The notes beneath the pieces are model-generated. The model saw only the letters and a list, made by a program, of their open reading frames with translations. It made no database searches and had not been told where the DNA came from. From a virus (lineage: Duplodnaviria > Caudoviricetes), in IMG/VR virus record IMGVR_UViG_3300021431_000093, positions 1-64,000 of that record: DNA of 64,000 bases, one strand, 5' to 3'. Both the position numbers and the translations under genes were made by a program. This document shows, piece by piece, positions 1,676-56,581 of this stretch (its first letter is position 1; each line of letters opens with the position of its first letter).

Positions 1676-1701
1676 AAAGAGGATCATATGATCCTCTTCT
1701 T
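1675..1701 (-). terminator. rho-independent terminator ending the lysis operon
   Basis: AAGAGGATC-atat-GATCCTCTT hairpin followed by TTTT on the minus strand. Confidence 0.75.
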
Positions 1702-1702
1702 A

Positions 1703-1918
1703 TTATCCTTTAGCTTGTCCGTTTGTAAAAGATTTTGTAATATTTTCCATTTCAGCACAAGGTTCAGTGTAGAAGTCTTCAAGTTCAACAAACTTCATAC
1801 CTCTCTCTGCACCTAACCTTTGAGCTTCTTTTTCAGCACATTTTTTACAAAGTGGTGAAACAAATCTTTTTGAAATATATCTAGCAGGCTTACCACAAAG
1901 TACGCATTTTTCTTCCAT
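1703..1918 (-). CDS. small Zn-binding protein (CxxC...CxxC)
   Basis: AGGAG SD before ATG 1918; CVLC and CKKC motifs. Confidence 0.65.
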   Translation of the reverse strand: MEEKCVLCGKPARYISKRFVSPLCKKCAEKEAQRLGAERGMKFVELEDFYTEPCAEMENITKSFTNGQAKG

Positions 1919-1928
1919 ATCTATCTCC

Positions 1929-4900
1929 TTAAATAACATTTAAGTCTGAACGTTCATCTAATAAATAAGATGAAATCCTAGAACCTTTAAGTTGTAATCT
2001 ACCAAAACTATTCATATTTGCACCAGCCTCATGAGCTAATAATACAGACTTACCACCTTTATCACTAATAGATTCAGCATTAGTAGCATAATTATAGTGA
2101 CCTTGTAATACAGCAGTTAATCCTTTTGTATTTTCAATTAATGAGTCTGTTCTTGCTTTATACCTACTATCAGATTCATATGTAGATTTACACATATGAG
2201 TAATAACTACTATATAATCAAAGTTTGCATCTTTTAATTCATCAATATATTTCTGAACTTGCTTGAATAACTTATCTCCATCATAGAATACAAAATCACC
2301 ATAAGTCCATTCACCATCTGAATATGAACCTTGTCCATTAGGAGATGGATAACCTATACCAATTACGCCAATCCTCTTTGAACCAATCTTTGCGGTTCTG
2401 TAAGGTTTATAAACTAACTTACCATTACGGAACATATTACAAGCTGTCATACTCTTATCTTGATTTAAGATATTGATTGTCTCGTTAGGATCTCCCCATT
2501 TCCACTCATGATTTCCATAAGTTGAAGCGAAGTAATCTTTATTATTCATCTGTGTAGCTGATACCATTTCACCTGTATTTACATAATCAGTGTAAACTCT
2601 ACAAGGTCTAGACCAGTCACCACAGTCAACTAATAAGGCTTTAATATTGTTCTTTTTAAGTTTTGTTCTGTAACTATTTAAATCATCATAGTTAAATACT
2701 GGACTCAAATAGTTTCCATCTTCATCATATCCGACCCATGCTCCATGAACATCAGCTGTATATAATAAGTCAATCTCATCATACTCATTAGGATCAACTA
2801 TATCATAGTCAAATGGATCAAAGTTATTATCAATAAATGACCTTAACTCAGTGACTTTTGTATATAACTCGTCATATAAATCCATCTGTTCATTTCTATT
2901 GACACATGTAAGTGCTATATCTAATGAACTCTTTAAAGCAGGAATTTCCTTCTTTAACTCTGGTCCTCTTCTTGAACTACCAGCAGGATAATATACAACT
3001 TCTTCAATACCTGCTACCCAAGCATTATCACCTAATTTATATCAAGTATAATCTGATTTAACTTCAGATGCAAGTACATTATAATTTGAATTTTCTTCAC
3101 AATAACCGATTCGTTTACTTGAAGTTGTACTATCAGTTCTAATACTTAATAATACATCAGGAACATATAATTGATCTCTATTAATATCTTCAGGAACAGG
3201 AGATGGTAATTCAGATGCTACTAAATAATTAATACCGTTAACGTCAGCAACAAATGCTTCATCACCAATCTTATACCACGTATAACCACTTCCCTCATCT
3301 TCAGATAAAACATTGTAATAAACATTGTTCTTACAAGTTCCCATTATTTCATCATTAGTTGAAGGTCCTTTTCTGATATTGATTTCTGATCTAGTTACTT
3401 GAATCTGATTTACTTTTGTATTCCTATCTACAGGTGTTGGTTCTACCCAAACTGGAGTAGGCTCTTCAGCAGGATAATACTCTACTTCAGGAATTCCTGC
3501 TATATATGAATCAGGTCCTAAATGATACCATTTATAACCACCTGAGGTTGTTACATCTAATATATTGTAATAAACAAGATTTTCAACATAACCCATAACA
3601 GCACCACTCATTGATGGTTCTTTTCTGATTCTTACAACACCTTGCTTATTATTAATGTAAACTTGATTCTTTAAAGTATCCTTTTCAACAGGAACCGGTT
3701 CAACCCATACTTTAGCCTGTTTAAATTCTACTTCATCAACTCCAGCAACTCAAGAATTTTCACCGATATTGTACCAAGTGAAATCACTCTGTACTGACTT
3801 ATCTATTACATTATAGTACACATGATTTACACATGCTCCCATTATCTCATCTTTTGTTGATGGACCTTTTCTAATTCTTACAACTCCACGGTCATTATTA
3901 ATGAATATCTGATCTACCTGATCATTTTGTTTTACTACTTCAGGTTGTACTCAATCACTCATAATTTCTTCCGCCTCTTTAAATTCAACTTCTTTAACAC
4001 CAGCAACCCATGATCTGTAACCAATATTGTATCATGTATAATCATCTTCCTTTTCAATCTTATCTACATTGTAATAAGATAAATTTTTACATGCTCCCAT
4101 GATTTCAGATTTTGTTGATGCTGATTCTCTAATCCTAACAACTCCAGATTTATTGTTAACATAAATCTGACTTCTACTTCTATCTTCAGGTACTGTTTCA
4201 GGTTCAACTCAAACTTCTGGTTCAGGTTTAGGATAAAATTTTATTTCATCTACTCCTGCTACCCAATACTGATTTTCAAGTTTATACCAAGTATATCCAT
4301 CTGCTTCTTTAATATCAAGTACATCATAAATGCCTTGAGGACAATAAGTACCTGTATATTTTGAAGCTGATAATGATGGATTTGTTCTTACATTAATATA
4401 TTGACCTAAAACTTCAATCTGATCTTTATTCGCATCACGATCAACTATTTTACTGTTTACAGGTAAATATATAAAACCAATTAATCTACCAACACCATCA
4501 AGAGTAATCTTTCCTGGAATTAATTCAACTACACGTGATCTTCAATATTTTCAATCTCGTCTTGATTTATTAGCATCATAGTTTGATTCAGAAATTATAG
4601 CATGCGTAGCATCCAAACGTTTTTCTACAAATGCTACATGACCATAATTACCGTCAAATACAGCAACTGAACCAGTAAGAAGCTCTTGACCTTTAGCAAA
4701 TATAGTTGTCTTATATCAATCTTTAGCATTACCAAATCCACCACCGGCTCTTACCCATGGAAATCTTTCAGTTGCTTCCATAGCTTCATAGCCTCTACAG
4801 AAACAATATGTTGTACAATTTGGTAAATTAATATCAGCATACTGTTGAGCAGTATTGAATTGTCCTCCTGGTTTAAAGTATTTGTTAGGATTATTATTTG

Positions 4901-4937
4901 CGTCCACTCCTTGGACAGATAATCTCTCTAAATACAT
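1929..4937 (-). CDS. endolysin: CHAP + six SH3b-like repeats + C-terminal metallophosphoesterase domain (1002 aa, TGA=Trp)
   Basis: One frame with 8 TGA and no TAA/TAG. CHAP motifs NCTTY, GNAKDW and GHVAFVE; six Q-x-x-[VI]...[IV]R...YTWY-type repeats; phosphoesterase motifs DVH, GD, GNHE, TH and GH. Directly follows the holin. Confidence 0.85.
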
Positions 4938-4939
4938 TT

Positions 4940-5371
4940 TTATCCTTTCTCTACAATATCACTGTCAACATTATAATCAACTGTACTAGTACTTAATTCA
5001 GAATTATAAGTTGCTTCTTTTGCTTCTTTACGTAATCCAAAGAATTCAACAGCATTCCCATACAGTTTAACACCATATACACCAATTGCAAGAATAATAA
5101 GAGCATTTAACATTGCTTGAATTGTATATGTTGCTTCACCAATCTGTATAACTGCTAAATCACCTCCGAAGAAAGCGCCAACAAAATATACAAACGATAA
5201 GAGTAAAAGAACACCAAGATTAGCAGCAAGGCCTAAAATTAATCTTTTTCAATCAAAATCTTCGCCTTTATCATTGAAAGGTTTACAAGAAAATACTTTA
5301 AATCCTGTAAGTGCAACAATGATTGCTAATAAAATTATGGAGTTAGCAAAGAAAGATAATTCAATTTTCAT
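4940..5371 (-). CDS. holin (143 aa, TGA=Trp)
   Basis: GAAAGGAG SD; three hydrophobic segments once the TGA at 5249 is read as W (FDWKRL); immediately upstream of the lysin. Confidence 0.8.
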
Positions 5372-5531
5372 GACTATATCTCCTTTCAGATAATATACCA
5401 TACAATATTTATTAATTAATATACAATAGGTTTTGGAGGAAAACAGACGTAAGAAGTGCTTCAACTGGTACAGGAACATATAATATAACAATTAATAAAT
5501 TTATAGTGCTTGAAGCTGATTTATCATAATT

Positions 5532-5559
5532 AAAAAAGAGGATTCAATCCTCTTTTTTT
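5532..5559. terminator. bidirectional rho-independent terminator
   Basis: AAAAAAGAGGATT-c-AATCCTCTTTTTT. Confidence 0.8.
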
Positions 5560-6130
5560 ACATTATAGAACATTGTCCAGCTGTTTTTGTTTTAGCCACT
5601 ATAGTTGTATTTTCAGTTACAGTTAATGTATATGGATTATTGCTTGATAATAGTGATCCATTTTTATATCATCCATCAATTGTATATCCCCTTATAGGAT
5701 ACATCATAATATCAGTATCTCCTCCTGCATATCCATTACCAACTATAGTTGCTGTATTTTCAGGGTTAGATACTATAGTTAATAAATAACCACCGGATGC
5801 TGTTATGTCATATATTTTTGATGTTTCATTATCAGTTGAAGAGTATCCTACTCTTAACTGAGTTGCATATATATCTACATCAAGATTTATTGTAAATGTA
5901 GTACTTGATCTAGCTGATCGAGTTTGAGATACTTGATAAATATTTACTCATTGATTATTTACATATGCGTCTATTATACAATATATAGTAGCTGAATATT
6001 TTGCTCCTGAATTTCCCACTGTATATGTTCCACTTATATTAAGTAATTTACCACTAGATAATTCTACTATTTTGTTTCCTGTTTTAGATGAAGTTGTATC
6101 AGTAGTTTTAATTTGTCCGAGTATTTTCAT
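5558..6130 (-). CDS. beta-rich virion-type protein with an InlB B-repeat-like C-terminal domain (TGA=Trp)
   Basis: 190 aa after read-through; PIRGYTIDG[TGA]YKNG...YTLTVTENTTIVAK matches the GYTFxGW repeat pattern. Confidence 0.7.
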
Positions 6131-6199
6131 AATTATTTAATAAATATACTAATAGTGTTTTTTTTTTAATTCTCATTGATTTATGACTAAGTCATGTAA

Positions 6200-6293
6200 T
6201 ATTTTAATTTTATTATAAAAAGTACATTTGTTTTATATATTAAGTTTCACTTGATTGTATATATTTTAATCTTGTATAATCAGTTATGGTCAT
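6200..6293 (-). pseudogene. decayed tail-fibre-domain gene fragment
   Basis: MTITDYTRLKYIQSSET*YIK resembles the YTxLEYIESTGTQYI fibre motif but is broken by TAA; the 3' boundary is approximate. Confidence 0.45.
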
Positions 6294-6295
6294 AA

Positions 6296-6880
6296 TTAAT
6301 AAACTCCATATATCCTATAAGGAGTTACATTATTATGCGAAGATGCATCTCATCTAATTGTGCCATCTGAATCAAAATAATATCATCTTCTTCCATATCA
6401 GCCTCCGTTACACGTACCACCCATCTCACTACCACCTTTTGGAATAAATACAGTGGTAGCTGGTTTATCAACAGCTGTACAACTTGATACAATAATAAAT
6501 TTAAATCTACTAAAGTCACCATCAAGTGTAGTTGCTCCAACATTTACAGCTGTAAGGTTTTCATATAAAACTTGTACACTAAAACTATTACTTCACTTTA
6601 ATCCATATACTTTAATTGGATTTACATTATTATGCGAAGATGCATCTCATCTAATTGTTCCATCTGAATCATAATAATATGTACGTCTACCATAATATGT
6701 TCCTCATGTAGGACCTCCATTTGCTTGAGTACCTTTAATAAGTACAACAGTCGATGCAGGAGTATCAGCTGCTACACGATTAGTTATTACTATCATATCA
6801 TATTGTGGAAAAGTACCTAAATTCATTTCTCCAACAGCTTCTACCGATGGATTTGTATATAAAGTATCCATTGTTATCAT
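6296..6880 (-). CDS. two-repeat fibre-tip-like protein (194 aa, TGA=Trp)
   Basis: Two tandem ~97-aa domains, each ending YY[YF]DSDGTIRWDASSHNNVxPxx[VI]YG; paralogous to 6895-7209. Confidence 0.75.
6325..6680. repeat. 59-bp direct repeat, 57/59 identical (6325-6383 and 6622-6680)
   Basis: direct alignment at offset 297. Confidence 0.9.
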
Positions 6881-6894
6881 AAATTTAAATCCTC

Positions 6895-7209
6895 TTACTT
6901 AAATCCCATTATAAGTCAAGGAGTAACATTTGAGCCAGCATCAAATGAAAATGTACCATTGGATGCATATGTATAAGTTCTATATCCAGAATTTGTACCT
7001 CAAGCACAACCTCCTAGATCAGATCCTCCTTTAGCTAAAACAACACAATTTCCTGGTGTACCGGTTTCAGAACCTACTATGTTTAATACAACTATAAATT
7101 TATAATCATATACTCCAAGTGTTGTTGCACCAGGAACTGTTCCTGAATATGTATATAAAATATCCATTTTTGCAGGTACTGTATGTTTTCTAATTAAACA
7201 GTTACCCAT
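6895..7209 (-). CDS. single-domain fibre-tip-like protein (104 aa, TGA=Trp)
   Basis: Read-through gives GGCAWGTNSGYRTYTYASNGTFSFDAGSNVTPWLIMGFK*, the same domain as in 6296-6880. Confidence 0.75.
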
Positions 7210-12894: not shown

Positions 12895-15381
12895 CTAAAT
12901 ATCTTCATGCGTATTTATTTCAAAAGTTCCATTGCACATCTGTTCAATATACTTCTCTTTAATCATTGGGAACTTCTTTTTTATTATATCAATATTCCCT
13001 GATTTTGTAAACTCTTTCTTGACTTCAGCTGAACTTTCATCAAGATACCATCTTTTAACATTATAACCATCACATTTCCATGGTACAGCTGAACACTTTG
13101 TTCTTGCTGCTTCTACCATTACTTCTGATAATCTCTTTGCTGCTCTTTCAGAATTTTCAGTGGGAGCCTCACCAAACATTTCATCATGCACCGTCGCGAG
13201 TAAATGGAACCCTAACTTATTTAATTCAGGATCATTATCTACCATAATCATTGCTAACTTTGTCATTGATGCTGCTGTACCTTGAATCCTTGCATTTAAA
13301 CATTGTCTTAATGACCTTGTAATAAATCCCTTATTATTTTTTACATTAAATCCTTCTTTAAATGCTTGCTGTGTTATATTATCTACTTCCTTTTTCCACT
13401 TTGCTTTTGACAACTTATCTTGATATTGTTTAATCTTCATTTGAGTTGCCTTATCCTCATGTGGAAGTGCACCTAATAATGGATTAAATTCATAATTATT
13501 CTTATACTTTTCATTAGGTTTTACTTCATACTCTGGAAGTTGTGCATCTGGAATATGTCTTCTTCTTCCCCACATATCAGTTACATAACCTTTTTCTCTT
13601 AACATCTTTTGAGAATCTTTTGTTAATTGATCAACTCCTTTAAATCCTTTATAAAAGTTATCAATAATTTCTTGAGCTTCTTCCAAAGACATTTCAAGTT
13701 TTTCTGCTAATGACTGTGCTCCCATTCCATATGTAATACCTAAAAGAATAACTTTTGCTTTACTTCTTCTTACTTTACCTTCAGGTTGTAATACATGTGT
13801 TACTGGATTAAATTCCAAATTATCTTCATAATTATTTTTAAAACATATACTACCAATTCGAGCATATAAATCTTCACCTCTTTCATATGCTCCAATCATA
13901 TCCTTATCATTACCTAATGCTGCTGTACTTCTCGGTTCCTGTGCTGAATAGTCACATCCAACTATTGAATATCCATCTCTCGCTTTAAATATCATTCTAA
14001 TGAACTTGTCATGAGATGGAATCTGCTGTAAATTTGGATCAGTACTACTAAATCTACCAGTTACTGTTCCGCATGGATTAAATCTTGCATGTAATGAATT
14101 ATCACTTTTTGCAAATGTTGGAATCTTATCAATAAATGAATTAATCAGAATATCTACTTCTCGCTTTTCTAACAATAATTCACAGATTTTAACATGCTTT
14201 TCATTTGCTAATATCTCTAATGCAGCTGCATCAGTTGTTCTTGGTTTTTTCTTATCTACTACAGGAACTTGTAATATATCATACAGGAGAATTGCCATCT
14301 GTGTTGGACTACCTAATTCAATAGGATCAGATAATTGTTCAACTTTAGATTTACCATAGCCATCACCTTTTTTATTAGGTTGTTTCATATTTGCATCTGG
14401 ACTTAATTTCCATTCATCTATATATGGTTGTAATCTATCAAGCTCTTCATTAATTCTACCTTGAATCTCATCCGCCTTCTTATGATATTCAATTGACATT
14501 TTTTGAGCATAATCTTTATCTATTTCAATACCTCTCAACTCCATCTTAACTACAACTGGAATAATTGGTATTTCAATATCCATTAATAACTTATAAATTT
14601 CCTCATTTTCAGGTTTCTCAAATTCTTTTAACTGATATTCATATAATTTATAAGTTTTATATGGATCAAGTGCTGCATAATATGCAAATAATTCAGGTTT
14701 AAAAATACCGTAAGGTAATCCTTTAAATAAATGTTCAATATCATATTTTTCTTCTTCTGGATCAATATGTAATTTATACTGTGCTTTTAAACCTGCTTGT
14801 TCATTTTCATCTAATAACTTTGAACCAGGAATTGTATCCCAATAAACTGGTAACATAACTTTACAAGTTGAATATAATACTTCAATATCGAATGATGCAT
14901 TTGTATATACAATCTTAATATTATTATCAACCAACCTCTGTAATTGCTCACCAATTTCCATTTCATTCAATTGATTTGATAATAATTGTTCTGTATCTTT
15001 ATTAATATGATTTACTGGAATATATGCATACTTTTCACCTGGAGTATATAAACATAATCCCATTAATTTACAATCAATCGTATCTAATGTATTATTTGTT
15101 TCTGTATCTATTGCAATAATTCCATTTTCAATTGCCTTATTAATATAATCAATAAAAGTTACACTATCTCTAATTGTAACAATATCGTCTTTATATTTAC
15201 CTAAAATTCTATAAACATCCTGCTCAATAAGTTCCATTTTTTCTTCAATTGAAACACTCTTTGATTTCAATTTCTTTTCCAATGAAACTTCTTTGACTAC
15301 TTTTTTATTTTTTGTCTTATTTAAAATCTTTTGGAGGTCTTCTTCTTTTACATTGAATTCCTCTCCCCAAAGTGAATCCAT
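12895..15381 (-). CDS. polA: family A DNA polymerase with 3'-5' exonuclease
   Basis: IAIDTET exonuclease motif; TGRFSS.DPNLQQIP; DYSAQEPR (motif A); R..AK...LG..YG (motif B); VHDE (motif C). Confidence 0.95.
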   Translation of the reverse strand: MDSLWGEEFNVKEEDLQKILNKTKNKKVVKEVSLEKKLKSKSVSIEEKMELIEQDVYRILGKYKDDIVTIRDSVTFIDYINKAIENGIIAIDTETNNTLDTIDCKLMGLCLYTPGEKYAYIPVNHINKDTEQLLSNQLNEMEIGEQLQRLVDNNIKIVYTNASFDIEVLYSTCKVMLPVYWDTIPGSKLLDENEQAGLKAQYKLHIDPEEEKYDIEHLFKGLPYGIFKPELFAYYAALDPYKTYKLYEYQLKEFEKPENEEIYKLLMDIEIPIIPVVVKMELRGIEIDKDYAQKMSIEYHKKADEIQGRINEELDRLQPYIDEWKLSPDANMKQPNKKGDGYGKSKVEQLSDPIELGSPTQMAILLYDILQVPVVDKKKPRTTDAAALEILANEKHVKICELLLEKREVDILINSFIDKIPTFAKSDNSLHARFNPCGTVTGRFSSTDPNLQQIPSHDKFIRMIFKARDGYSIVGCDYSAQEPRSTAALGNDKDMIGAYERGEDLYARIGSICFKNNYEDNLEFNPVTHVLQPEGKVRRSKAKVILLGITYGMGAQSLAEKLEMSLEEAQEIIDNFYKGFKGVDQLTKDSQKMLREKGYVTDMWGRRRHIPDAQLPEYEVKPNEKYKNNYEFNPLLGALPHEDKATQMKIKQYQDKLSKAKWKKEVDNITQQAFKEGFNVKNNKGFITRSLRQCLNARIQGTAASMTKLAMIMVDNDPELNKLGFHLLATVHDEMFGEAPTENSERAAKRLSEVMVEAARTKCSAVPWKCDGYNVKRWYLDESSAEVKKEFTKSGNIDIIKKKFPMIKEKYIEQMCNGTFEINTHEDI

Positions 15382-15405
15382 ACAATAATCTCCTTATACA
15401 AATAC

Positions 15406-22895: not shown

Positions 22896-24560
22896 TTAGA
22901 TTCCAAGTAATTCCTTAAGTTCATCTAGGTCATTTACTTTACCATCTATCATATAATCTGATACGTTTTTCTTCTTATTTAATAGGTTCCACACTCTTTC
23001 ATCTATTGTACCGGTACATATTAGGTCATAGATTATTACAGGTTTTGGAGTACCTACTCTTCAACACCTATCGCATGTCTGTTCAAATTCAGCATAAGTC
23101 CATGCTGTATCAATATGTATCTCATAACTTGCAGCTGTAAGAGTTACACCTGTACCCATTTTTTGAACGGTACCTAAAAATACTTTATATTCAGGATCAG
23201 ATTGGAACTTATCTATATTATCTGATACTTCCTTATCTTCTAAATCTCCTGTACCTAATAAAGGTTTATATTGCTTTAATCTTTCTTGAAGTATGTATAA
23301 AGGTTCCTTAAAATATGAGAATATAACTACCTTTTCACCATTACTTATGATCTCTTCAACTAAATCAATAGCTCTTTCCAACTTTGTTGGTACAATATTT
23401 GATGTACTTAATACTGAAGGAGATGAAGTAGCTTGTCTTAATCTAGTTATAAGTCCTAAAAGATTTGTAGCATTTATCTTGACTTTATCTACTTCATCAA
23501 GGATACCGTTCATTATATTCTCATAGAATTTTTGTTGAGTAGTATCCATATCAATATATTCAGGTATAATAGTTTTTGGAGGTAGATTTAAAATAGATTT
23601 ATCCCTACGCAATGAGCAAGATTCTATTTCATCCTTAAGAATATTAATATTTTTATATCCGACTATTTGATTGTGACCAAACTTCTGTTCAAATACACAA
23701 TAATAATTCTTAAAGTTTGTTCAAGTTGAATTTTCTTTACCTATAAATTTCAATGGTACAAAAGCATCCAAAGGTGAATTCATAAGTAAAGTACCAGTCA
23801 TACCAACATGACGTTTACCAACTTGAGTCAATTTTAAAAGATTTTTACCTTGTTGTGATGATGGTGTCTTACTCTTATGTACTTCATCAAATAATATCAG
23901 ATCGAAATTATTTTTACTGTTCCTTATTGCATCAACTATTAAATTATCCCTTAGTGATTCTATATTTAATATTACAAAGTATTCATCTATTTTATTGTAT
24001 AATTGCTCTGCTCTATCTTTTATTGATGTATAAGATACTTTACCTTTTGAGTTAATCTTTTCACCTACAATAATACATTGTTCAGATGAGTGTCTTTGTA
24101 TTTCTTTCTTTCAGTTGTTTTTTAATGAATTAATACCACAGATAATTAAACAATGTTCATAATTTTCCTGTGATTTTAATTCTTCAGCTAGATATATTGT
24201 TTCAAGCGTTTTGCCTAATCCAGGAGGATTTAATAAAAGACAATTTGGATTATTTAATAATCATTTTATATCTTCATACTGATAATCAAATGGAGTTGTT
24301 TTATATTTGAGCGTAAGTTCATAACTTTGTTCTTGACTATCTTCCATAAATCCTAGTCTCATATTGTCAATATAAGTAAGATTATCAATCAAAAAAGCCA
24401 GCTGATTAGCTGGTACTTCCCAAAATTTTTGGGTTTTATGTCAGATAGCTCCATCTGATTGTTTTAATACATTTATAATATCCTGATTATATTCAAAATT
24501 TATTCTTAAAGATGTTTCACCTGGACATTTAAATGATTTTATTTCAGTTATATAAATCAC
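22896..24560 (-). CDS. SNF2/Rad54-family helicase (554 aa, TGA=Trp)
   Basis: GTG start; PPGLGKT, FDEVHK, MTGT, LRQ, MGTGVTL and QTCDRC[W]RVG; five in-frame TGA. Confidence 0.9.
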
Positions 24561-24943: not shown

Positions 24944-24968
24944 AAAAAAAAAGAGGATTGCTCCTCTT
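24944..24968 (-). terminator. terminator at the end of the tail operon
   Basis: AAGAGGA-ttgc-TCCTCTT hairpin with long T-run on the minus strand. Confidence 0.75.
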
Positions 24969-26769
24969 AAATTTCGTGGTGTCAAGGTCAGTACTCATTT
25001 GTATTGACATCTTTTGTAACTGTATCATCTTTTGTTCAAATATCAATAACTGTTTTTCACAATCCATCGATTTTAACAAAACATTTATTTACTTTCTTTC
25101 AGCTATTACCAATTCTGATATATTTACCTGTTTTTGCTCATATACCATAATATCTTTCAGTAATACCTCAATCACTTAATGTCTTATAATTTTTAATTTT
25201 AATATCGATAGGTAATTCTATCTTTATTTCATGACCTTGTGAATCGACAATCCTCTCAGGTGGTACAGTATATGTTCCATGATATCCTTTATTAACCATA
25301 CTTGAATTATCTCAACCATCTGGCATTGTATCTAACCATCCTAGGAATACATAATCTCCACTTCTTAATTTTGATGGAGCATATTTAAGGAATGCTTTAT
25401 CACCTTGTGAATCTAATGTAGATGTATCAATATTATATGTATGAGTATCTGTTTGAATTGTACCATCATCAGTTAAATAGTATTTACATTCAACTGTATT
25501 TACATTATAATCTCATTGAGCATATAGTGTAACATTATTATTAGTATATTCAGTATTAATAGCATCATAGAAATTGTCTCCTATAATAGTATTATTCATT
25601 ATAGGCGTAATTGCTCTACTTTGATCTGATCATCCTACAAATTTATACCCTAATCTAGTTGGTATTCATAATGGAGTTTTTTGTGTATTTATCTCATATG
25701 TTTTATCTATTGTATAATCAGTTACTTTACCTAATTCAGGATCTAATTGACCGCCATTAAGATTAAATCTTATTTGATAATTTTGTTTTTCAGATACTGG
25801 GTGTATAGTTAGGTCAGACGAAACTATTGTTTGAGCATCTACAACAGAATTATTTTGATCATATCATGTATTTGTTTTAACATAACCTTTTTTATATACT
25901 GTTGGTAATGAATCTACTGTTTTATATACAATGTCACCATAATCTATGCGATATTGCTCCGTTAATGAAGTATTAGAATTTATTGTAAAAGTATCATTTG
26001 GTTGTTTACCACTTCAAGATAAAAATATATACTTTCTTGTTTGACTTGTAGATTTATCGCGTTTATCTTGAGATGGTTTTCATCCTTGCATATCAAAATA
26101 TATATACCTTGGTATATCAGTTGATGATAATGATCTATTATATGCACTTCGAACTTCTACTGATGATCCTTGTGTATATGTAGATGAAGATATTAAATCT
26201 CCACCAAAATCATCATTTTGATAATAAGAAAGCGTGTAAGAGTACTTTTTTGTACCCTTCACGCTTATACTTATAGTTATAGGCGTTAAATTAAGTGAAA
26301 ATGTTTCAGGTGTAATTGGAACTTTATATGTACCTGTTATACTTGCATATAATGAAGCTTCAAATGTTTTTGTACTTTGAGTATATGTATCTGCTACAGA
26401 TCCTGTACTTGAAGATCATGTTATTACATTTGTATAGTTTTGTAATGGTGGGTTAAAACTACTGGTTGATGATGTAAATCTAAATTGTGATCAGTTTTTT
26501 GATGAATCAGTACCTCCAGCAGTATTGACTTTATATGACATATCTGATGATGTAGTTAAAGGTGCAGTTTGGTACAAATATAATCTAGCAGGTCCAATTG
26601 TAACATTTCCAGCTGCTGTTGCAATAGCAGTAACTTCAATATATGATTTAATACTTACAGTCGTTCCAGATTTTAACGTAGTTGATAATGTTATAGTACT
26701 TGATTTAAATGTTGAACTGCTCCCATTAGGACTTATTGAACCAGAAATATTATAAGATGATGTTGGCAT
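24967..26769 (-). CDS. tail fibre / receptor-binding protein with InlB B-like repeats (600 aa, TGA=Trp)
   Basis: Read-through joins 26491-26769 and 26080-26262; PTRLGYKFVG[W], VTLYAQ[W]; C-terminal IGNS[W]KKV...KIDGL[W]K motif. Confidence 0.75.
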
Positions 26770-27670: not shown

Positions 27671-28228
27671 CTACAAAGAACGATCAATCTCTCATTTGTA
27701 ACTTACGTACAATGTTCATTCAATCTTAATATTAGTATCACCTTGAGGTGTTAAACCTTCACCAGGTAATTCAACTGTAGCATAAACTTTTCTTGAATTA
27801 TCTTTACTTAATAATTGGAAACCATTTATAGTTGAACCTGATACTATAGCGCTTGGAATAAGGAAGGTGATTTCAGCAGTACAGAAACCACCATCATTTC
27901 CATCAGCATCTTTATGTGATTCTGAATCTCAATATGATGCAGATGCTCCAAGTTTTGAACTAACATAAGGTGAACCATTACCAATAGGAATAGGTTTACC
28001 ATCAGTACCCTTTGTAAATGGAACAACTATACCAGGTCTTCTAGCAATTACATAATCACCAGTTAATGCTTGAGCAATATATTCACATAAATCAATAGTA
28101 CCTGTATTATGAGTAACAATTTGTCCGGCTTTTTTACCACCTTTAATCAATGTAATTTTTACATTACCTTGAGTAACAGTATTATTTTTTATTTCTGTTT
28201 TTACTTCTCTTTCTTTTTTCTTACCCAT
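27671..28228 (-). CDS. baseplate/tail protein (TGA=Trp)
   Basis: 185 aa after read-through; HNTGT N-terminal and IKIE[W]TL C-terminal pattern. Confidence 0.7.
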
Positions 28229-28231
28229 AAA

Positions 28232-28942
28232 TTAATCCTCCGGAATATCTGGTTCACTATTATAGATATAAGTTTCGATAAACTGATTAGGAACTATATT
28301 ACCTTGTTCATCATTACCAGTGATACTTATCTTTTGAGATGTTGCCTTATTTGTACCTACAAACATTCTATCATTATTTGGATAATCTTCATATGCAATT
28401 ACAACATCTCCACCCTCATTAACCTTACCTTCATTATAGTAAATATCTGTATATACAATATCACGTAAATTGTATGATTTGTATTTAATAATGTTATAAG
28501 TAAGACCTGAAGGTAATAAATATTTTACCAAATCTTCAATAATACCTAATGTAAATAAATCTTCAGGAACTCTTATTGTTACATTATAGTTTGACATTGT
28601 AACAACTTCATCCAATGATTCACCTACAATATTTTCAATTCTCATTAAAATATCTACACAATATTCAAGTGCCTTAACAGTACCCTTATTTCTCATTAAA
28701 TATTTAAAACAAGTTGTTACTGCTTCCAGATCATCCAAGTCTCATGAATGATCTGGTTCAAAATTTAATGTTTTAGCACGTAACATTGTCAATCTGTTAT
28801 CTATATTAGTATCCCAAATTGACATATTATCTATGTAAGTTTTTACATAGTTGAATAATGCTGTATAAAGTCTAGCAATTACTTGATAATCTCTTGACTG
28901 TGAACTATACTCTCATGGAGTTTGTTTTACTATATCAATCAT
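28232..28942 (-). CDS. baseplate protein, P2 gpI-like (TGA=Trp)
   Basis: Start 28942 overlaps the upstream TAA; RNKGTVKALE and YLLPSG motifs. Confidence 0.7.
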
Positions 28943-31900
28943 TAGTAACTCCCATTCCTCATATCCTTAACAATTTCCATAACAGAATTTTGTAAATCTA
29001 TTTGAGCAATAGTCATCTTATTTGCTATATTATTCTTATCCCACATTGAATAAGCATTTTTGAAATCAACTGTATCCATAGCAATTGAATTATCTAATGT
29101 GTATGGATAATAAGGTTTGATAGATGGTTGATCAGAACCTTTAATGATAGCAGATATTCTTGCATTTAATTTATCTAATGAAGTATCATCTCCATCAGCA
29201 AAAATATCTATATCAGGATTAACTCCATCTATAACAACTAAATCATCAATATACAACGTTTCATTTTCTGATGTAGCTTTACCGACCCATTGAATACATA
29301 AATATAATTCAACAGTCGATGGAATACCTGAAACATATTTATTTGATGGAGCAATATAGTAAGAATTATTACCACTTAATTCCATTTCAGTAACAGCAAC
29401 AGTTGCACCACCTACTACAGTATAAGGAAGAGTGGTATTATAATCATATATACCTGGACTATTATAATCACTTGTACCAGAAGTTGATTTTGCTTCAAAT
29501 TTAACTTTAACTGGTATTTCAGATCCAGTTATATGAATAGGTATTAAATACTGTTTATTGTTTATATCTTCACAATAAAAAGGATATTTAATCCATGCTT
29601 CACTAGTATATGAGCTCATATCATTCGTAATCTTAAGTCCTCTTGAATATGAATTCTCAGCTTTTGTATATACAAAGAAATTAGTTAATTGAGATAAATT
29701 TGCAATATTACCTATTTTAACACAGTTAGATGAAGCCTGAATATAACAATTAGTCCTATTTTCAGCACTTATAGGAATATCAACGCCATTAATATTGAAT
29801 ATAACTCTTTGAGCACTTATTAAATTATCACCATTATCTTTTGTTATAACCAGCTGCTGTTCAATATCAGGACCAACATTTAAATCTAACCTTGATTTAA
29901 TCTCATAAAAGTTAGTTAAAGGAGGTAATGTAGTTGATGTACCATTAACTGTATAAATAATTGATCCATCACACATTGAGAATCCATCATCAATTAATTC
30001 TTGTGTATCTGAATCATATCCATATCTATTAAAAGCAAATTCTTTAATAGTTTGACCTTCCATTATTCTTGGCATGTATTGAGATGACCAACCTATAATT
30101 TTAATACTATCAGTTTCACCTAAAGTAATTATATTCATCTCAGTGATATAGAATGGAGTTGCAGCAAAATTAATATTCTTTTGCCAAGGTATTGCTGTTG
30201 AAACACCTGTATTAGATATTGATTCAATTGTTAATGTATTAGCAGGAATTGTTCATTGTGAACTATCTTCATCAGTTCTTTCCAATTTTGTACCTGCTCC
30301 AAGAATTATCATTTCATTTAATAATGAATTAGTATAAATAAAATATTCATTACTTCTTAAAATTCTTGTTTTTGTATTACCGTTAAATAATACATTATTA
30401 CCTTCAGCATCACTGTTAACTATTCAATAACACCAAATACCTGTACTATTTAATTTGGTAGTCATTAATTTACGTTTAGATATAGTTTGATTTGTACCTA
30501 AAGTCTTAAATGCCTCTCCAACATGTGATTCACCACTTATCTTATCAGTTCAATCCTTCTTTGTACCAACTGTTGCTGATAAATCAGTAGGAATTAAATC
30601 AAATGAACAGAATACTACATCACCAGGATAAAGTATTTCAGTACTTTGTACACCCTCCTGTGAATAAATTAAAATAATCTTTTCACTTGCCTTTAAAGTA
30701 TGATCAGTATTCGCTTTTATTGAATCAGTTTCTGAACCAACATATCTGTAATTTACGTATGTGGCATAAGTTGTATCTGAATAGTAATTAGGATAAATAA
30801 TTTGAATAGCTTCATTTTTATTTAAAGTATAATCAATATTGATTACACCTGACTCTATTGATTTAACATTTATATCTTTAGTTACAATGATATCACCAGC
30901 ATCCAAAAGAGTTTTACTTGTTGTAGTTGATAATGTAGCATCATCAAGTTTATTTGTTATAGTTACATTAGTATCAATACCACTAGTAAATGTAGTTGTT
31001 TTAATAATCTTATTAGTATTATTACCATCTAATTCATAAATAATAAATGAATCAGTCTTACCAGCTCTTAAGGTGTAACTTGCATCAGTTGTTAATGCAT
31101 ATGCTTTTGTACCTGACTCACTATCATCAGGTTGAATTATAAATGAATATTTATAATTATTACCATTTGATTTAAATCTGGTAGCTGACCTCTGTACTTC
31201 AGAAGTTTGTTCATGAGTAGCATCTTCATCTTCACTTGTAGTTAAAGGGATATATAATTCTGTTTTAATTGTTTCTTGATTCTTATATGTTGAACCTTCA
31301 AGTTGACCATAGTCATAATCAAATTCTTCATTAAAATCAAATAAACAAATTCTACCAGCAAGGATATTTTTAGTAACTAAATCTAAAAGTAAATCACCTG
31401 TTACGTCTGATTCAACTCCATTTGAATTCATTGCTTTTGTGTGATATTCAATAGGTAAAATATCAACTCTACGAATTCTTGAATCAGAAGCTATAATTAC
31501 ATCTTCAAGGTCTTCTACATCAAGTTTAACTCCAAACTCTAAATGTCTAGGATTAAATTTATCAGATAATTCTTTACGAATATTATCTAATATTTCATCC
31601 TTTTCTACTTCACTTACTTTATTGTAAGGAGTGATTAATATATTTAATGGAGCATAATTCTTAAAGCAATAAACATCAGTACTTGAAGGATCATTTCATG
31701 TATGAGAAATACACTTTACCTCTTCAATATCTGATTTAATTTCATCCCTTATAGCTTCTGAAATAGGAGTAAATGAATTATTATATGCAATCCAATAATA
31801 ATTAGAATTATAATCACTCATTGCAAATACTTTAAATCCATATAAAACTAAATCATATGGAGTCATTGCTTGAGTTAATATGGAGAAGTCATTTAAATTA

Positions 31901-33231
31901 ACATATTCCTGGCGTACATAATTGGCAATACCAGGAATAGTTGACATATTTACATATAATCCATTATCATCTGTTGTACAATAGTACATATCACCTGGAT
32001 TACCAGTACCATCTTCACTCATCTGTGTAATTTCAGCAAGAGTTGCTCCACCCAAGAAGTGTAAAGCACATTTTTGTGTACTTATTGTTTTAAATCTCTT
32101 GAAGTTATTTTCTATATCCCAAGATATTACTTGAGCTGCCTTGTTATAATCTGTACGTCTATCAGTTACATATACATTTGATACGAGAGGATTATCATTA
32201 TTATCAGTTAATGTATAAATTTTATTTTCATAATCTTTACATGTAACTAATGTATCAAATGTACCAACTACTCTCCTGAATGATTGATACATTTCATTAA
32301 TTGTCTCAGGATCTTTACCATTAACAATTGACCCAGCATTATATACTGTAAAATTCTCGGATGATCTCTCTACTCCATCACCTATATCAGTAAATGTTGA
32401 AGGGCTTAATATTTTAGTTAATGCGTTTGCACTTACATTACCTTGAATACCAGATGTTGCAATATACTGAATCTGTAAACCATCTCCAATTAAATTTGCA
32501 ATATCAGTAGGAAATTCAATATAAGGTAATAATCTAGTTGAATCATAATCAATCTTATAAACTCTTGATCCTAAAGGTTGAGTTAATAAATAATTATTAC
32601 GACTTCAGAAGCCTTCATAATCGTCAGTATTTATATTTCTAATATAAATACCATTCTGTGCAACCATTGTTTCAGGTAAATAAAGCCTGTTATTGTCATC
32701 TAAATTTTCAAGTGAAATTGTAGATGTATCATTAATAGATAATGTTTGTAAAGTACCTTCAATAAATCTACAAGATGAAGGAATACCTGAACCAGAAATT
32801 GCTAAATCTTCAATTTGTGTATATGATACAGTTTCATCTGCATCTGAAATAACAAAAGTGAAGGCAGGTATTGAGAATAAATCGTCATTCTCATCTCCTT
32901 CAGGTTTATTATAAACAAATGTTACTTCTCCATTCGCTGAAATATAGTATTGAGGAGTATATCCATTCATCTCAGTAATATTTCTTACTGATCTGTCTTG
33001 AGTAGCCGATGGTAAGAAGTTTTCAAGAACATTCTTATCAATATTATAATTATTATGATCAGCTACGAATGCTCCTTCCTTGATAAGGACTACACCTGGA
33101 TCAGATTCATTTGATTGTGAAGGATCCCATTTATTTGTAAGTTCTTTAGCAAGGTCAAGCATTTCAGGATATATTGATCCAAAATCCTTACTTGTATAAC
33201 TTAACGAGCTTATCTCTTTATTAACACTCAT
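28942..33231 (-). CDS. large baseplate wedge protein, T4 gp6/P2 gpJ-like (1429 aa, TGA=Trp)
   Basis: Four track ORFs lie in one frame separated only by TGA; YTSKDF...SDPGVVL...FLPSATQ...GY.P, GKDPET and LVTCKDY motifs. Confidence 0.85.
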
Positions 33232-33258
33232 AAAATTTTACCTCTTATATATATTATA

Positions 33259-33630
33259 CTACGCTTCAGCTTCCAACAAAACAATGTTATACATATCAGT
33301 ACTGAAATCAGCTTTATTCAATGCTTTAATTTTAGCAGTAACCTGTCCTTTATTACTCCTAAATAACTGAATATCTTTTCTATCAACTCTTATTTGTGGC
33401 ATAAATAATGTAATAGCTGTATAAATATCATCAATTAAAATATCTATTAAAACGACATCATTCTGATCATATAAATATTTTTTAATACCCGTACCAAAAT
33501 AAGGATCACCAAATAATTCACCTTTTTCTGATCATAGTAACATTTTTAAATTTTGTAATGTTGCATCGTAATCACTAACAGTATTAGTTACTGTACGAGT
33601 AAACATCTCTGGAAATTTAATACTTTTCAT
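33259..33630 (-). CDS. baseplate wedge protein, T4 gp25-like (TGA=Trp)
   Basis: QNLKMLL[W]SEKGELFGDPYFGTGI...FMPQI. Confidence 0.85.
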
Positions 33631-33633
33631 ATA

Positions 33634-34587
33634 TTACTCTCAATTCATAACTCAACCTTCATTTTTTTGACCAGCTCAAGGAGCTACAGCTCCATCCTGC
33701 TCACCATAACTACGAGTATATGATTTTGTTTCAACTCAATCACTTCACCTTCCTGAGCCGTCAGGATTAAATAAATATATTCGTTCATATGTCCTTGTAA
33801 TCAAAGGTAATCATCACCCATCTTCTTTTTTATCAGCGCCATTTGTATATACTGAAGGTAATATAGGATTATCTTGAGATCCTGTATTATATACATCTCC
33901 TGCTCCTTCAGGTTGTCTTCCGCATTCAGTTTCAGGTATCGTTCCAGCCTCAGGATACCATCCTGAAGGTGTACCACCATCCTCTTGACCACTATCATCT
34001 CCTCCACCACCACCGGAATCAGGTCCCGAATCACCTCCACCTCCTCCTGAAGGGCTTCCATTCATATATCTTAATACATACACAGTTCCACTACCACCTC
34101 ATTCATATGATAATGAATTTCTATGATAAAAATAATAACTTGTTGATCTATATGAACCACTTGATCCTGGTCTATATGTTGGTCTAGTTAAATTTCAACC
34201 ATTTCATTGTCAATCATTATTACGTACATTACTTCAAAATGATTGATCGCCGCGATATGTCATACCAGGAGATGGTACTTCACAATCTTCATCTAAATAT
34301 AATCTACTCATATATCCACTTCCGGATACTGTACCATCATTATTAACAAAACAAACGTGGTGTTGAGCTTTACTTACAACTACATCTCCATATTTAATAG
34401 GAGCACTTCCACCAGACCCTGTATATACAACTTGTCATCCTCTATTTAATCTATCAGGTCAATCTTCAGCATTACCATTTGCAGGAGACGGTAAGCCTTC
34501 CTCCTCACATCTTACTCATACATATGTAGTACAATTAGGTAATCCACCAGCAACACTATAATATCTACTATTGTTTCAAATACCCAT
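33634..34587 (-). CDS. virion-associated CHAP peptidoglycan hydrolase (317 aa, TGA=Trp)
   Basis: LPNCTTYV[W]VRC...GNAED[W]...GDVVV...HHVCFV; Gly-rich linker; about 15 TGA. Confidence 0.8.
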
Positions 34588-34590
34588 AAA

Positions 34591-35100
34591 CTAATCCTCT
34601 CATTGAGTGTATGAATAACTTCCTTCTCATGTATATTTTTTCTGTCTTCATCCTACAAAAAATTCTAAATCTTTTTTAAAATCAAAATCTATTGCTGGTA
34701 TATAACTAAATATGCCTTCATCATCATACTTTATATATTCATGGGGAAGTTCTTCATCTTCATTATCAATTAATCATCAATATTCTTTATCATTAATTTT
34801 ATGTCCACAATGTGATTTATATGCCGCATTTGATCCAAATATAGTTGCAGCTTGAGTTGCTGTATAATCATTTGAGACGGTTGGTTTTAATAATGTATAT
34901 ACTTTATCAGCATCTAATGGATTAGGAGTACCTCATACATATTGAGTTATATTATTTCCCGTATCAGAACTGCTTACTGGATTATGATAAGTTATTTCAT
35001 ATAACCCTCAAGATAACTCATTAGCTTTCCTAACTTGTTTTATATCTATATTTTTAAATTTAATTCTTAAAACCGGTTTAATAGATGTTTTAATAGGCAT
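34591..35100 (-). CDS. hypothetical tail/baseplate protein (169 aa, TGA=Trp)
   Basis: AAGGAG SD; frame is open only under code 4; fills the gap between neighbours exactly. Confidence 0.7.
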
Positions 35101-35122
35101 AAATCTCCTTAAACTACTTAAA

Positions 35123-35770
35123 TTAATTATTAGAATCTAATTCACCTGATTTTGTATTTGGTACTGATGTTAAGAAAAATAATGTATTAATAAAATCTTC
35201 TTTACTCATTTCATATTTATTTTCATCATTAAATACGCCATCGGTAAAAAATGCATCATACTCATCTCCAGTCATTATTTGAATATGATCAGCATAGACC
35301 TCCGTAACTTCCTGAGTAGATTCATCTTTACGCTCTGTAGGATATCATTGTACATACTGCTTTAAATCTTCAGGGTTTATTGATCCATTACCACCGCCCT
35401 CTTTCATATCAACACCTTGATAAAGGTTAAAAATATCTTGGGTAGTATAATTTCCTATTTTTGTATCTTGAGGAAGTATAACATTACCGGTAACCTCAAG
35501 TTGATCAAATTTACCAAATACGTTTTCAGATTCAGGTATTTCTGTAAATAATTTACCTAAGATGATAGCTGTATCATATTTATCATCTTCATATGTTACT
35601 ATAACACAATCACCTACATTAATACCTTTATAAATGCCTGGAGAATGAGAAAGAATTGCTTCAAATTCTGCCTCTGTCTCGGTATTATCTTCCATTAATG
35701 GTACACGTACTCGATATATATTTGAATCTTCGCTAGGAATTTCAGTTATATATGCTTTAGTAGTAATCAT
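35123..35770 (-). CDS. baseplate central spike, gp5/gpV-like (TGA=Trp)
   Basis: YRVRVP...VGDCVIVTYED...IILGKL OB-fold motif. Confidence 0.75.
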
Positions 35771-37059
35771 TAAATTATTTCCTCCGCTCCAGCAACTCTT
35801 AATAATTTTAATGTAGTCTTATATCCATCACCAACACTAATGTTATCTTCCTGTGATGTTATAAGATAATAACCTGATGATATATGTAATTTACCAAAAT
35901 ATCATATATTAATCTTAACATACTGCATAAGTATGGCAGGTTTTAATAAACCTCTTAATGTTATACTTGCTTCAATAGGATATTCAGTTACTTTTGTTCA
36001 CCAGGTTGAATCAGCTTGAGTCATTTCATAATGACCATTTGATAACTGAGGTGAATACACTTTTTCTATTTTACCTTCAGTATCAATTCTTGTTAAATAA
36101 TCACTGTTTCCTAAATCTCTATTATATTTATAAAATAAAGATCAGTTCTGATTGTTTGCTATTGAAAAATCAGTTACAACATTTGCTGATGGATAACCTA
36201 TATCTATATTGTATGTACATAATTGATTCAATGAACTTGATGCTCTTTGAACTTTTTGAACTTTAAAATAAGGTCCTCCATATTGATTTTGTACATCTTC
36301 ATATGTCATTAAAGAATATACATTCTGTTTAATTGCTGAACTATTAGTACTTCCTGTAGGATTCATATATGAAACAAGGAAAGCAATATATTCAAGTACT
36401 GACATATTAGTACAAGTTGGAATCTTAACTATTTTATCATCACTTGCTATAAAGTTACTCATTTCAATCAGTGATCTATCTCTCATTCCTTTGAATACAT
36501 CAGTAAGATGATATTTTGAATTCCAAAGTACTTGTTTTATCTTATCACTTGGTTTAGCAGTTACTGATGGAAATGTATAAGTTCCACTTAATGACAAGGA
36601 TGAAGTAGATACAGCTTCAATAGTATATGTAATTGATGAACCTGTTATATCAAAACTATTTGATATTTTTGTTATAATTGCCTCTTCATCCCTATATACA
36701 TAATTAGGTAACATTGCATCACCATAAGTGAATGTAATTCTAAAAGTATCAGATACTGAACTGAAAATTTTCTCAAAGAAATTTGGATCATTATCCTCGT
36801 TTATTTGATATTTAATAGTTAATCAATATTGATTAACTGTACCATTTATCTTTTTTACTTTTAAACTTTGAACGTAATTAGGATACTTCGCTGCCAATTC
36901 AGTTACAACACCATTTCTTTGATCAGCTTTAATTCCTTTACGCTCAAATACACCAAAAGAATAGTTCCCTATTTGTACACGAACAAAAGGAGCTTCTACC
37001 CTATTAGTTGAAGCCAATAATGATCCTACTCTATTTGATTCTCGTGTAATTTCTGCCAT
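35770..37059 (-). CDS. baseplate hub protein, gp27/gpD-like (TGA=Trp)
   Basis: Joined ORFs; C-terminal ASITLRG...SSGYYLITSQEDNI...YKTTLKLLR. Confidence 0.75.
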
Positions 37060-37060
37060 A

Positions 37061-37378
37061 TTATAAATACCTTATTCCTGATAATGATGGAATATTTAAA
37101 AAATTATAATTTTCATATAAATTAATATATGGATCTTGAATTCTATTAAAATCTGCTATGACTCAAAATAAATCTGGTCTACCATAATACTTTAATGCTA
37201 AAGAATCCAATGTATCTGTATCTTTAATCATATGTATAACATACTCTGTATTTGTATTTAAATTACCTGTTATACCATAAATATACTTTTTATCAACGGT
37301 GTGATAATAAAAAGGAAACGTAGCATAACGTGATGTATAATCATAAAATTTCTTTGATTTATTTACAAGTACGTCCAT
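37061..37378 (-). CDS. LysM / gp53-like baseplate protein (TGA=Trp)
   Basis: DTLDSLALKYYGRPDLF[W]VIADFNRIQDP. Confidence 0.85.
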
Positions 37379-41164: not shown

Positions 41165-41382
41165 TAGCTTATCCTCTTCTTATTCTCTTCCAATAATTCC
41201 TTGGCACGATTAGCATCATCAACAATAAATTCTATTAGATAATCCCTTTCCCTAGGAGTTATCTTCAGTATATCAGTATAAGGTGTATTACAATTTTTAG
41301 ATATTGAATAACATTCCCTTACAATTTCTTTGAATCTATGTGGACCATATGGTTCACCATCATCATTAAATTGTGGGTCCAA
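41164..41382 (-). CDS. tail assembly chaperone, gp51-like
   Basis: YTDILKITPRERDYLIEFI; located between the gp26-like gene and the tape measure. Confidence 0.65.
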   Translation of the reverse strand: MDPQFNDDGEPYGPHRFKEIVRECYSISKNCNTPYTDILKITPRERDYLIEFIVDDANRAKELLEENKKRIS

Positions 41383-48320: not shown

Positions 48321-48357
48321 TACTTTTATTCCTCCGTAAAAATTATTTTATTTATAA

Positions 48358-56572: not shown

Positions 56573-56581
56573 GTCCTCTCC

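Follow-up and report, generated by a model that had tools for sequence, protein, structure and literature searches.

The LysK-type staphylococcal enzymes are an example of the endolysins of Gram-positive phages that combine a CHAP domain with SH3b repeats. A gene of related design lies at 1929-4937, on the minus strand, of the 64,000-nucleotide stretch of virus DNA analysed here (the window), which is the first part of the 100,004-bp IMG/VR virus record IMGVR_UViG_3300021431_000093. Its product, referred to below as the lysin, shares with these enzymes an N-terminal CHAP Cys-His pair, SH3b repeats, the apparent absence of a signal peptide and a holin-like neighbour gene. In contrast to them it has six SH3b repeats, a third, C-terminal module that is predicted to be an enzyme (a metallophosphoesterase, MPE), eight in-frame TGA codons and a small partner gene. 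An endolysin with this catalytic module and a dedicated partner appears to be undescribed; the proteins themselves are already public, unannotated.

The MPE shares its fold, motifs I-IV and metal ligands with 5'-nucleotidase, UshA, CpdB, YfkN, NadN and SoxB. It differs from this family in lacking the nucleotide-binding C-terminal domain (PF02872), in two active-site motifs (GNHEFD becomes GNHEW[KR]W and GHxH becomes GHxN), in the helical hairpin in front of it, in the zinc-ribbon protein predicted at its active-site face and in its fusion to lysins or baseplate proteins. Within the family, the thiosulfohydrolase SoxB acts on a non-nucleotide substrate with the small carrier protein SoxYZ. The locus resembles this pair in having a 5'-nucleotidase-family domain and a small partner protein, and SoxB is the top structural match of the MPE; however, the zinc-ribbon protein has no sequence relation to SoxYZ, and the biology is different.

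Phosphodiesterases of another fold are already known from phages. Glycerophosphodiesterases of the GDPD fold, carried on baseplates and tail lysins of Lactobacillus phage Ld17, Staphylococcus phage 812 and enterococcal phages, attack teichoic acids (PMC10194240, PMC13433997). The likeness is functional only, in that a phosphodiesterase stands alongside peptidases in phage proteins that attack the envelope. The GDPD enzymes are tail-associated TIM-barrels with no partner protein reported, whereas the MPE is a calcineurin-like sandwich; no GDPD domain (PF03009) is found in the lysin by Pfam.

Recoding of lysis genes has been described for TGA-recoded gut phages by Borges et al. (bioRxiv 10.1101/2021.08.26.457843), in the available text of which no CHAP-SH3b-MPE architecture is mentioned. 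The source of the window can be likened, by features alone, to the 'Agate'-type phages among them: both come from the cattle gut, have genomes of some 150 kb or larger, use TGA in lysis and structural genes but have several large genes without it, and do not always show a detectable suppressor tRNA. Full-text literature searches returned no description of an endolysin with a calcineurin-like domain and SH3 repeats. Among titles and abstract openings, searches for endolysin with metallophosphoesterase, and for endolysin with nucleotidase and CHAP, gave no such architecture.

A TGA-recoded lysin gene and its domains

One TGA-recoded gene encodes the lysin. Translation of the reverse complement of 1929-4937 with table 4 gives 1002 residues followed by TAA, with exactly eight TGA codons read as Trp. 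These are at residues 74, 129, 132, 243, 302, 329, 396 and 632 (4716-4718, 4551-4553, 4542-4544, 4209-4211, 4032-4034, 3951-3953, 3750-3752 and 3042-3044). With table 11 the frame is split into three open reading frames (ORFs) at 4716-4937, 3042-3611 and 1929-2885. A preliminary description of this DNA had proposed a single frame broken only by eight TGA codons; the translation, gap-free contigs and a codon-position bias bear this out. Its coordinates also hold. The coding strand is the minus strand and not the plus strand, which is full of stops over the same interval.

The linker at 2886-3041, described earlier as stop-free, contains neither a stop nor a frameshift. A 92-kb contig from a separate bovine-gut study covers 1700-5500 with 80 substitutions and no gaps, a second metagenome run bridges 2776-3293 without gaps, and indels are reported nowhere, including in the linker of these independent contigs. 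Compared with L013, a 98% identical relative, differences number 14, 11 and 100 at codon positions 1, 2 and 3 over all 1002 codons; the third-position excess holds across the junction too, in more distant comparisons. ATG 4937 is preceded by the Shine-Dalgarno sequence AAAGGA, whereas ATG 2885 has none, as had been noted. Metatranscriptome contigs X16 and X15 cover parts of the gene; X16 leaves 2843-2969 bare, and DNA carry-over is possible in both.

The source of the window is a T4-like, AT-rich phage of the bovine rumen or gut that decodes TGA as Trp. The window has about 29% G+C, nearly all its genes are on the minus strand, and the stretch is present in bovine-gut metagenomes of ten studies. 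Within the six internal repeats of the lysin, TGA and TGG are interchangeable at the YTWY and WVAG columns. Orthologues carry TGG at the TGA positions of the window and vice versa; these include L003, which uses the standard code and whose gene ends in a TGA stop. This interchange, together with TGG at the same sites in orthologues, identifies TGA as a Trp codon. In-frame TGA at conserved Trp positions, the mark of TGA-to-Trp recoded phages, is found in many genes of the record. The lysin can be made only once TGA is decoded as Trp, since its gene needs eight read-throughs.

If TGA were a stop, the region would hold separate small or decayed genes, and the sole product would be a 318-aa phosphoesterase started at ATG 2885. 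Table 11 does give a 318-aa ORF, and the 100 kb of the record, which is about 60% complete according to CheckV, yields only tRNA-Met and no suppressor tRNA; a tRNA and Rfam scan of the 64-kb window gives no tRNA and no Rfam family. Suppressor tRNAs are, however, detectable in just 35% of TGA-recoded phages according to the available text of bioRxiv 10.1101/2021.08.26.457843. The alignment of TGA with TGG in paralogous repeats and orthologues, the codon-position bias over the whole gene and its junction, and the dozens of other genes in the record, many of them long, that likewise need TGA read-through all speak against a stop. A start at ATG 2885 would, besides lacking a Shine-Dalgarno sequence, remove the first helix of the hairpin in front of the MPE. 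Termination at TGA is thus extremely improbable.

TGA use varies across the record. Several large genes are without any TGA, for example 12895-15393, 46521-48347, 51985-54129, 54674-56581 and 77981-80452. Others are dense in TGA: the genes at 24967-26769 (600 aa) and 33634-34587 (317 aa) contain 16 each. The split between TGA-poor and TGA-rich genes is not purely one of replication versus structure; a SNF2-type helicase gene (22896-24560) has five to seven TGA.

The CHAP peptidoglycan hydrolase domain is encoded at 4443-4937 (minus strand, residues 1-165). Pfam PF05257 matches residues 40-119 with 32.1 bits against a cut-off of 26. The catalytic residues are Cys41, His100, Glu117 and Asn119, of which Cys41 and His100 are intact and kept in 11 homologues. 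Six SH3b repeats of about 80 aa each follow at 2973-4442 (minus strand, residues 166-655); PF08239 (SH3_3) scores 82 bits and recognises four stretches, and self-alignment resolves six. The CHAP domain and six SH3b-like repeats of the preliminary description are thereby confirmed, and the repeats supply the cell-wall-binding part expected of an endolysin. The Pfam scan finds no structural or tail domain at the N-terminus, and hydropathy gives no hydrophobic N-terminus or signal peptide. Repeats 2 and 3 (3951-4442, lysin residues 246-412) share 58% identity, and each corresponds to the same single repeat of the 925-942-aa relatives; a recent internal duplication thus accounts for six repeats where these relatives have five.

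The metallophosphoesterase domain and its zinc-ribbon partner

The MPE domain, of 5'-nucleotidase/CpdB/SoxB type, is encoded at 1932-2792 (minus strand, residues 716-1002). It was delimited by Pfam, motifs and an AlphaFold2 (AF2) model. In a scan restricted to the C-terminal 355 aa, Metallophos (PF00149) scores 31.2 bits against a gathering score of 21.5; the scan of the whole 1002-aa protein does not report it. NCBIfam NF006934 (CpdB-type) matches 721-958 with E 2e-16, far below its full-length cut-off. The best PDB matches by sequence are the nucleotidase 3ivd and YfkN.

The AF2 model, built from 69 sequences, has a pLDDT of 97.1 and shows the metallophosphoesterase beta-sandwich. It matches many members of the metallophosphoesterase family with Z 8-27. 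In VIA-align comparisons the N-domains of SoxB, UshA, NadN, CpdB and CD73 give Z 24.0-26.7, with root-mean-square deviations of 2.7-3.4 over 247-259 residues; SoxB is highest at 26.7, a fungal 5'-nucleotidase reaches 20.5 and other metallophosphoesterases are at or below 17.6. Foldseek matches the model to CD73 and UshA with E of about 1e-15. In BFVD the only close viral structural relative is a Pandoravirus 5'-nucleotidase.

The metal ligands are D729, H731, D774, N809, H914 and H947, and the catalytic residue is H810. They lie in the motifs D729-x-H731 (DVH), G773-D774 (GD), G808-N809-H810-E811 (GNHE), H914 and G946-H947. The calcineurin-like motifs and the resemblance to 5'-nucleotidase/CpdB that had been read from the letters alone are well founded, given the Metallophos, NCBIfam and structural matches. 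None of the six ligands varies among 21 members of the clade, and neither does the catalytic His. The GHYN variant of GHxH is also real: N949 replaces the last His, and it is conserved as GH[YLF]N. Since the Asn is invariant in the close clade, GHYN is a conserved feature and not decay. E. coli UshA has Gln at this position.

The His-Asp dyad of the family is absent. GNHEFD is replaced by GNHEWKW, so that the position of the Asp is Lys813; it is Lys, Arg or Tyr across most of the phage clade. The close clade has the signature TxDxHxxW, DCGDWSRP, GNHEW[KR]W, HM[CD]K and GH[YLF]N. No match to PF02872 is found, and the protein ends 53 residues past motif V. Judged by sequence and model, the MPE appears to be a catalytically equipped member of the 5'-nucleotidase/CpdB/SoxB branch that has lost the nucleotide-binding C-terminal domain.

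This clade is small. A search of 1.84 billion representatives gave 942 matches, with only 17 clusters below 1e-30; the remainder, with identities near 30%, belong to the ordinary 5'-nucleotidase family. No other module of the lysin is as conserved as the MPE: relative to L015, nonsynonymous differences number 43 in 287 codons in the MPE, 49 in 165 in CHAP and 174 in 420 in SH3.

A two-helix hairpin separates the last SH3 repeat from the MPE (2793-2972, minus strand, residues 656-715) and contains ATG 2885. In the AF2 model its helices span model residues 4-26 and 31-51 (lysin residues 658-705) with pLDDT 93-98. It is conserved as the linker in all relatives.

Directly downstream of the lysin gene is a gene for a 71-aa zinc-ribbon protein (1703-1918, minus strand) with a CxxC...CxxC pattern and an acidic C-terminal half. 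It starts at ATG 1918, which has the Shine-Dalgarno sequence AAGGAG, and not at ATG 1939. A soluble CxxC...Cxx[C/H] protein of 60-83 aa is encoded 10-17 nt downstream of the MPE gene in all 19 loci, which are the window and 18 distinct relatives (the duplicates L005, L007, L012 and L014 are uncounted). Among these loci MPE identity ranges over 28-98%, and both genetic codes and every fusion type are represented. The partner family comprises about 50 clusters and has an acidic second half and an invariant Asp48. It has no Pfam, PHROG or PADLOC name, with only sub-threshold generic zinc-ribbon matches, and only unnamed clusters in the protein atlas.

The partner is predicted to bind the MPE beside its active site. 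Complex prediction gives ipSAE 0.90, 0.87 and 0.91, against 0.01 for the best of three controls; in the benchmark of this score, that level was attained for 58 of 80 solved complexes, as opposed to 2 of 110 mismatched pairs, counts that apply approximately here because custom alignments were used. The alignment was made without the row of the code 4 relative L004. The runs share at least 76% of contacts, with partner pLDDT of at least 85. No solved complex of a 5'-nucleotidase with such a partner is known to us that the predictor could have reproduced, which makes memorisation unlikely.

The predicted interface is formed by the residues right after MPE motifs II, III, IV and V, including K813 and N949 (model residue 295). 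These residues are the clade signature: GDWSRP, GNHEW[KR]W, HM[CD]K and GH[YLF]N. The tightest predicted contacts are a beta-strand addition onto the last MPE strand.

Relatives, module exchange and gene neighbourhood

The gene had been called hidden. In fact, public protein sets in which genes were called with code 4 already contain, unannotated, full-length CHAP-SH3-MPE homologues (925-1002 aa). The GenBank phage collection has no blastn or tblastn match to the lysin gene or protein. A scan of IMG/VR with the single C-terminal protein finds nothing; the scan with the clade alignment finds six loci. PHROGs has only an unnamed family, phrog_19584. Natural fusions of the MPE are to CHAP+SH3, CHAP+GH25+SH3, one to three SH3, CHAP alone, Gp10_C (T4 baseplate) and Flg_new_2.

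All eight TGA codons lie upstream of the MPE, and all five MPE Trp codons are TGG. The preliminary description had reported this distribution correctly and had taken it as a sign of a recent fusion at the linker; that interpretation is rejected. The absence of TGA from five codons is only weakly unusual (p ~0.02-0.05 from TGA:TGG ratios), and MPE orthologues contain TGA (two in L002, six in L004, three in L009 and one in L006). In addition, repeat 6, which carries the TGA at residue 632, is orthologous to the MPE-adjacent SH3 of CHAP-less relatives (53-73% identity) and shows no more than 41% identity to the other repeats of the lysin. It follows that SH3-hairpin-MPE is the ancient unit. Modules appear from sequence to have been swapped upstream of residue ~577, where the variable part lies.

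The MPE also occurs in baseplate or tail proteins. L004 is syntenic with the baseplate module at 27671-42109 of the window, at 77-99% amino acid identity, and its Flg_new_2-MPE gene lies inside that module. In L016, which uses the standard code, a Gp10_C-MPE gene comes after those for the tape measure and the distal tail.

A cassette differs between the window (33634-35100) and L004 (8001-11111) inside this otherwise 77-99% identical baseplate/tail module. In L004 it consists of the Flg_new_2-MPE gene, a zinc-ribbon gene, a 187-aa gene and a CHAP gene. In the window it consists of a 169-aa gene (34% identical to the 187-aa product) and the 317-aa gene with 16 TGA, which has no family match. 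The swap looks like a host-range cassette exchange.

In L002 (4836-9716), L011 (2543-6693) and L012 (1549-5699), SH3-MPE and zinc-ribbon genes lie between nrdD, the gene for anaerobic ribonucleotide reductase, and its activase-like gene (Fer4_12). These nrdD-associated pairs have no CHAP and no holin nearby.

A gene for a 143-aa protein with about three transmembrane (TM) helices by hydropathy and one in-frame TGA lies upstream of the lysin (4940-5371, minus strand). Its stop is 3 nt before the lysin ATG, and its ATG 5371 is preceded by the Shine-Dalgarno sequence AAAGGAG. In L006, L013, L015 and L017 a homologue immediately precedes the lysin, and in L009 one adjoins it. The protein is a candidate holin, and this arrangement supports the endolysin role given to the lysin in the preliminary description. 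We propose that 5371-4940 (holin candidate), 4937-1929 (lysin) and 1918-1703 (zinc-ribbon protein) make up a lysis cassette, far from the tail module and among non-structural genes. The cassette is silent unless TGA is Trp, because the lysin needs eight read-throughs and the holin candidate one. Such dependence agrees with the preference of recoding for lysis genes that has been reported.

Upstream of the holin candidate, 5558-7209 contains three small TGA-rich genes. The first (5558-6130) has a sub-threshold Flg_new_2 repeat; the other two (6296-6880 and 6895-7209) have internally repeated GG..WG.Y.GRR.YY.DSDGT motifs in common and no family match. A ribosomal protein S21 homologue is encoded a few kb downstream of the lysin cassette in L006 (15888-16103) and L013 (10762-10977); the counterpart of this region lies past the start of the window contig.

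Additions to the preliminary description are the loss of the dyad Asp, the obligate zinc-ribbon partner gene, the holin candidate and the finding of the same MPE-partner pair on lysins or on the baseplate (Gp10_C).

Function and alternative explanations

The favoured explanation is that the window encodes a lysis-cassette lysin in which a complex of MPE and partner cuts a phosphoester-linked component of the envelope; as a whole, its chances are somewhat better than even. The lysin, having no signal peptide, would wait in the cytoplasm and probably leave through the holin. Its six SH3b repeats would dock it on the wall of a presumed Gram-positive host and CHAP would cut peptidoglycan. The MPE would work together with the zinc-ribbon protein seated on the loops flanking its active site. 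Possible substrates are teichoic-acid-type polymers, the linkage unit of a wall polymer or a phosphorylated polysaccharide; cleavage would expose peptidoglycan or destroy a receptor.

Use in lysins as well as baseplates is the pattern of wall-degrading domains. The MPE-partner pair is fused to lysins and to baseplate or tail-tip proteins, so its substrate is most likely a phosphoester-linked envelope component. A wall-polymer phosphodiesterase, as suggested in the preliminary description, is a reasonable proposal, and the baseplate fusions of relatives strengthen it. The loss of the nucleotide-binding domain and the remodelled active-site rim argue against a plain nucleotidase function.

Several points weigh against this explanation. 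The enzymatic activity of the MPE is a prediction from sequence and model; the change of the dyad Asp to Lys or Arg and of the last His to Asn may have modified or weakened its chemistry. Among characterised enzymes, its nearest relatives hydrolyse nucleotides, nucleoside-diphosphate (NDP) sugars or protein-bound thiosulfonate, not polymers. The SH3-MPE pair of several relatives adjoins nrdD/nrdG and not a lysis or tail module. The holin candidate belongs to no PHROG, Pfam or PADLOC family. Species-representative bacterial genomes gave no prophage copy, either with the clade alignment (A4) or with the temperate-phage homologue P0019. The scanned 100 kb lacks a suppressor tRNA, as described above, and the partner may inhibit the MPE instead of forming part of the enzyme.

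A site-completing subunit is the more probable role for the partner, at a little over even; a masking inhibitor is possible but clearly less so. As an inhibitor, the zinc-ribbon protein would act like a cytoplasmic immunity protein, masking a harmful phosphoesterase until the lysin exits or the virion is assembled; such an enzyme could, for example, act on nucleotides, NDP-sugars or lipid-linked precursors. Endolysins are held in the cytoplasm prior to lysis, and the predicted interface on the loops around the active site (N949 included), the acidic contacting half of the partner with its invariant Asp48 and the inseparability of the pair in every fusion type would all suit a mask. However, the beta-strand addition in the model is typical of stable subunits, and the partner also accompanies baseplate-fused MPEs, where a permanently bound inhibitor would be counter-productive. 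It is less likely again, and on balance unlikely, that the MPE keeps the small-molecule chemistry of 5'-nucleotidase and UshA and acts on nucleotides, NDP-sugars or undecaprenyl-pyrophosphate-linked wall precursors. Its best sequence and fold matches are indeed nucleotidases, UDP-sugar hydrolase, NAD nucleotidase and CpdB, and the nrdD/nrdG neighbourhood of some relatives would agree; the missing PF02872 domain, the fusion to wall-binding SH3b and baseplate proteins and an active-site signature that departs from canonical enzymes do not.

Two further explanations carry lower odds. The protein could be a virion-associated entry lysin, with another enzyme responsible for lysis from within. Virion-associated hydrolases are often long, multi-domain lysins, MPE homologues occur in the baseplate and tail modules of other phages, and a record that is about 60% complete may lack a second lysin gene. 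This is nevertheless improbable for a gene that is far from the tail module, directly follows a 3-TM protein among non-structural genes in an order kept in five relatives, and encodes no structural or tail domain at the N-terminus. Slightly more doubtful still is a non-catalytic MPE that merely binds a phosphate-rich wall polymer. The loss of the dyad Asp and the change of the last His to Asn would allow it; against this stand the invariance of the six metal ligands and catalytic His in 21 clade members, an equally invariant Asn at the seventh position (where UshA has its Gln) and the strongest purifying selection within the lysin. An anti-defence cyclic-nucleotide phosphodiesterase was also considered and set aside as less likely, given the baseplate fusions, the SH3b targeting and the lack of PADLOC matches.

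A broader possibility, which we hold tentatively and at rather less than even, is that SH3-hairpin-MPE and the zinc-ribbon protein form an undescribed two-component phosphoesterase. It would be used from within (endolysin) and from without (baseplate) to cut phosphodiester-linked wall polymers or destroy a receptor, with the small protein taking the place, in trans, of the cap domain that 5'-nucleotidases have and the MPE lacks, and thereby redefining substrate specificity.

The catalogued catalytic domains of endolysins are glycosidases, amidases and peptidases; the MPE would add a new class of envelope-attacking domain. The module is under strong selection and, with its partner, occurs in lysins and baseplates of both standard-code and TGA-recoded rumen phages. 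The pair is a clonable candidate for stripping teichoic-acid-like polymers, which may be useful for engineered lysins against Gram-positive bacteria, and may illustrate how a subunit acting in trans can give a nucleotidase fold a new purpose. In addition, a lysis cassette that is untranslatable unless TGA is Trp bears on the proposal that recoding times lysis.

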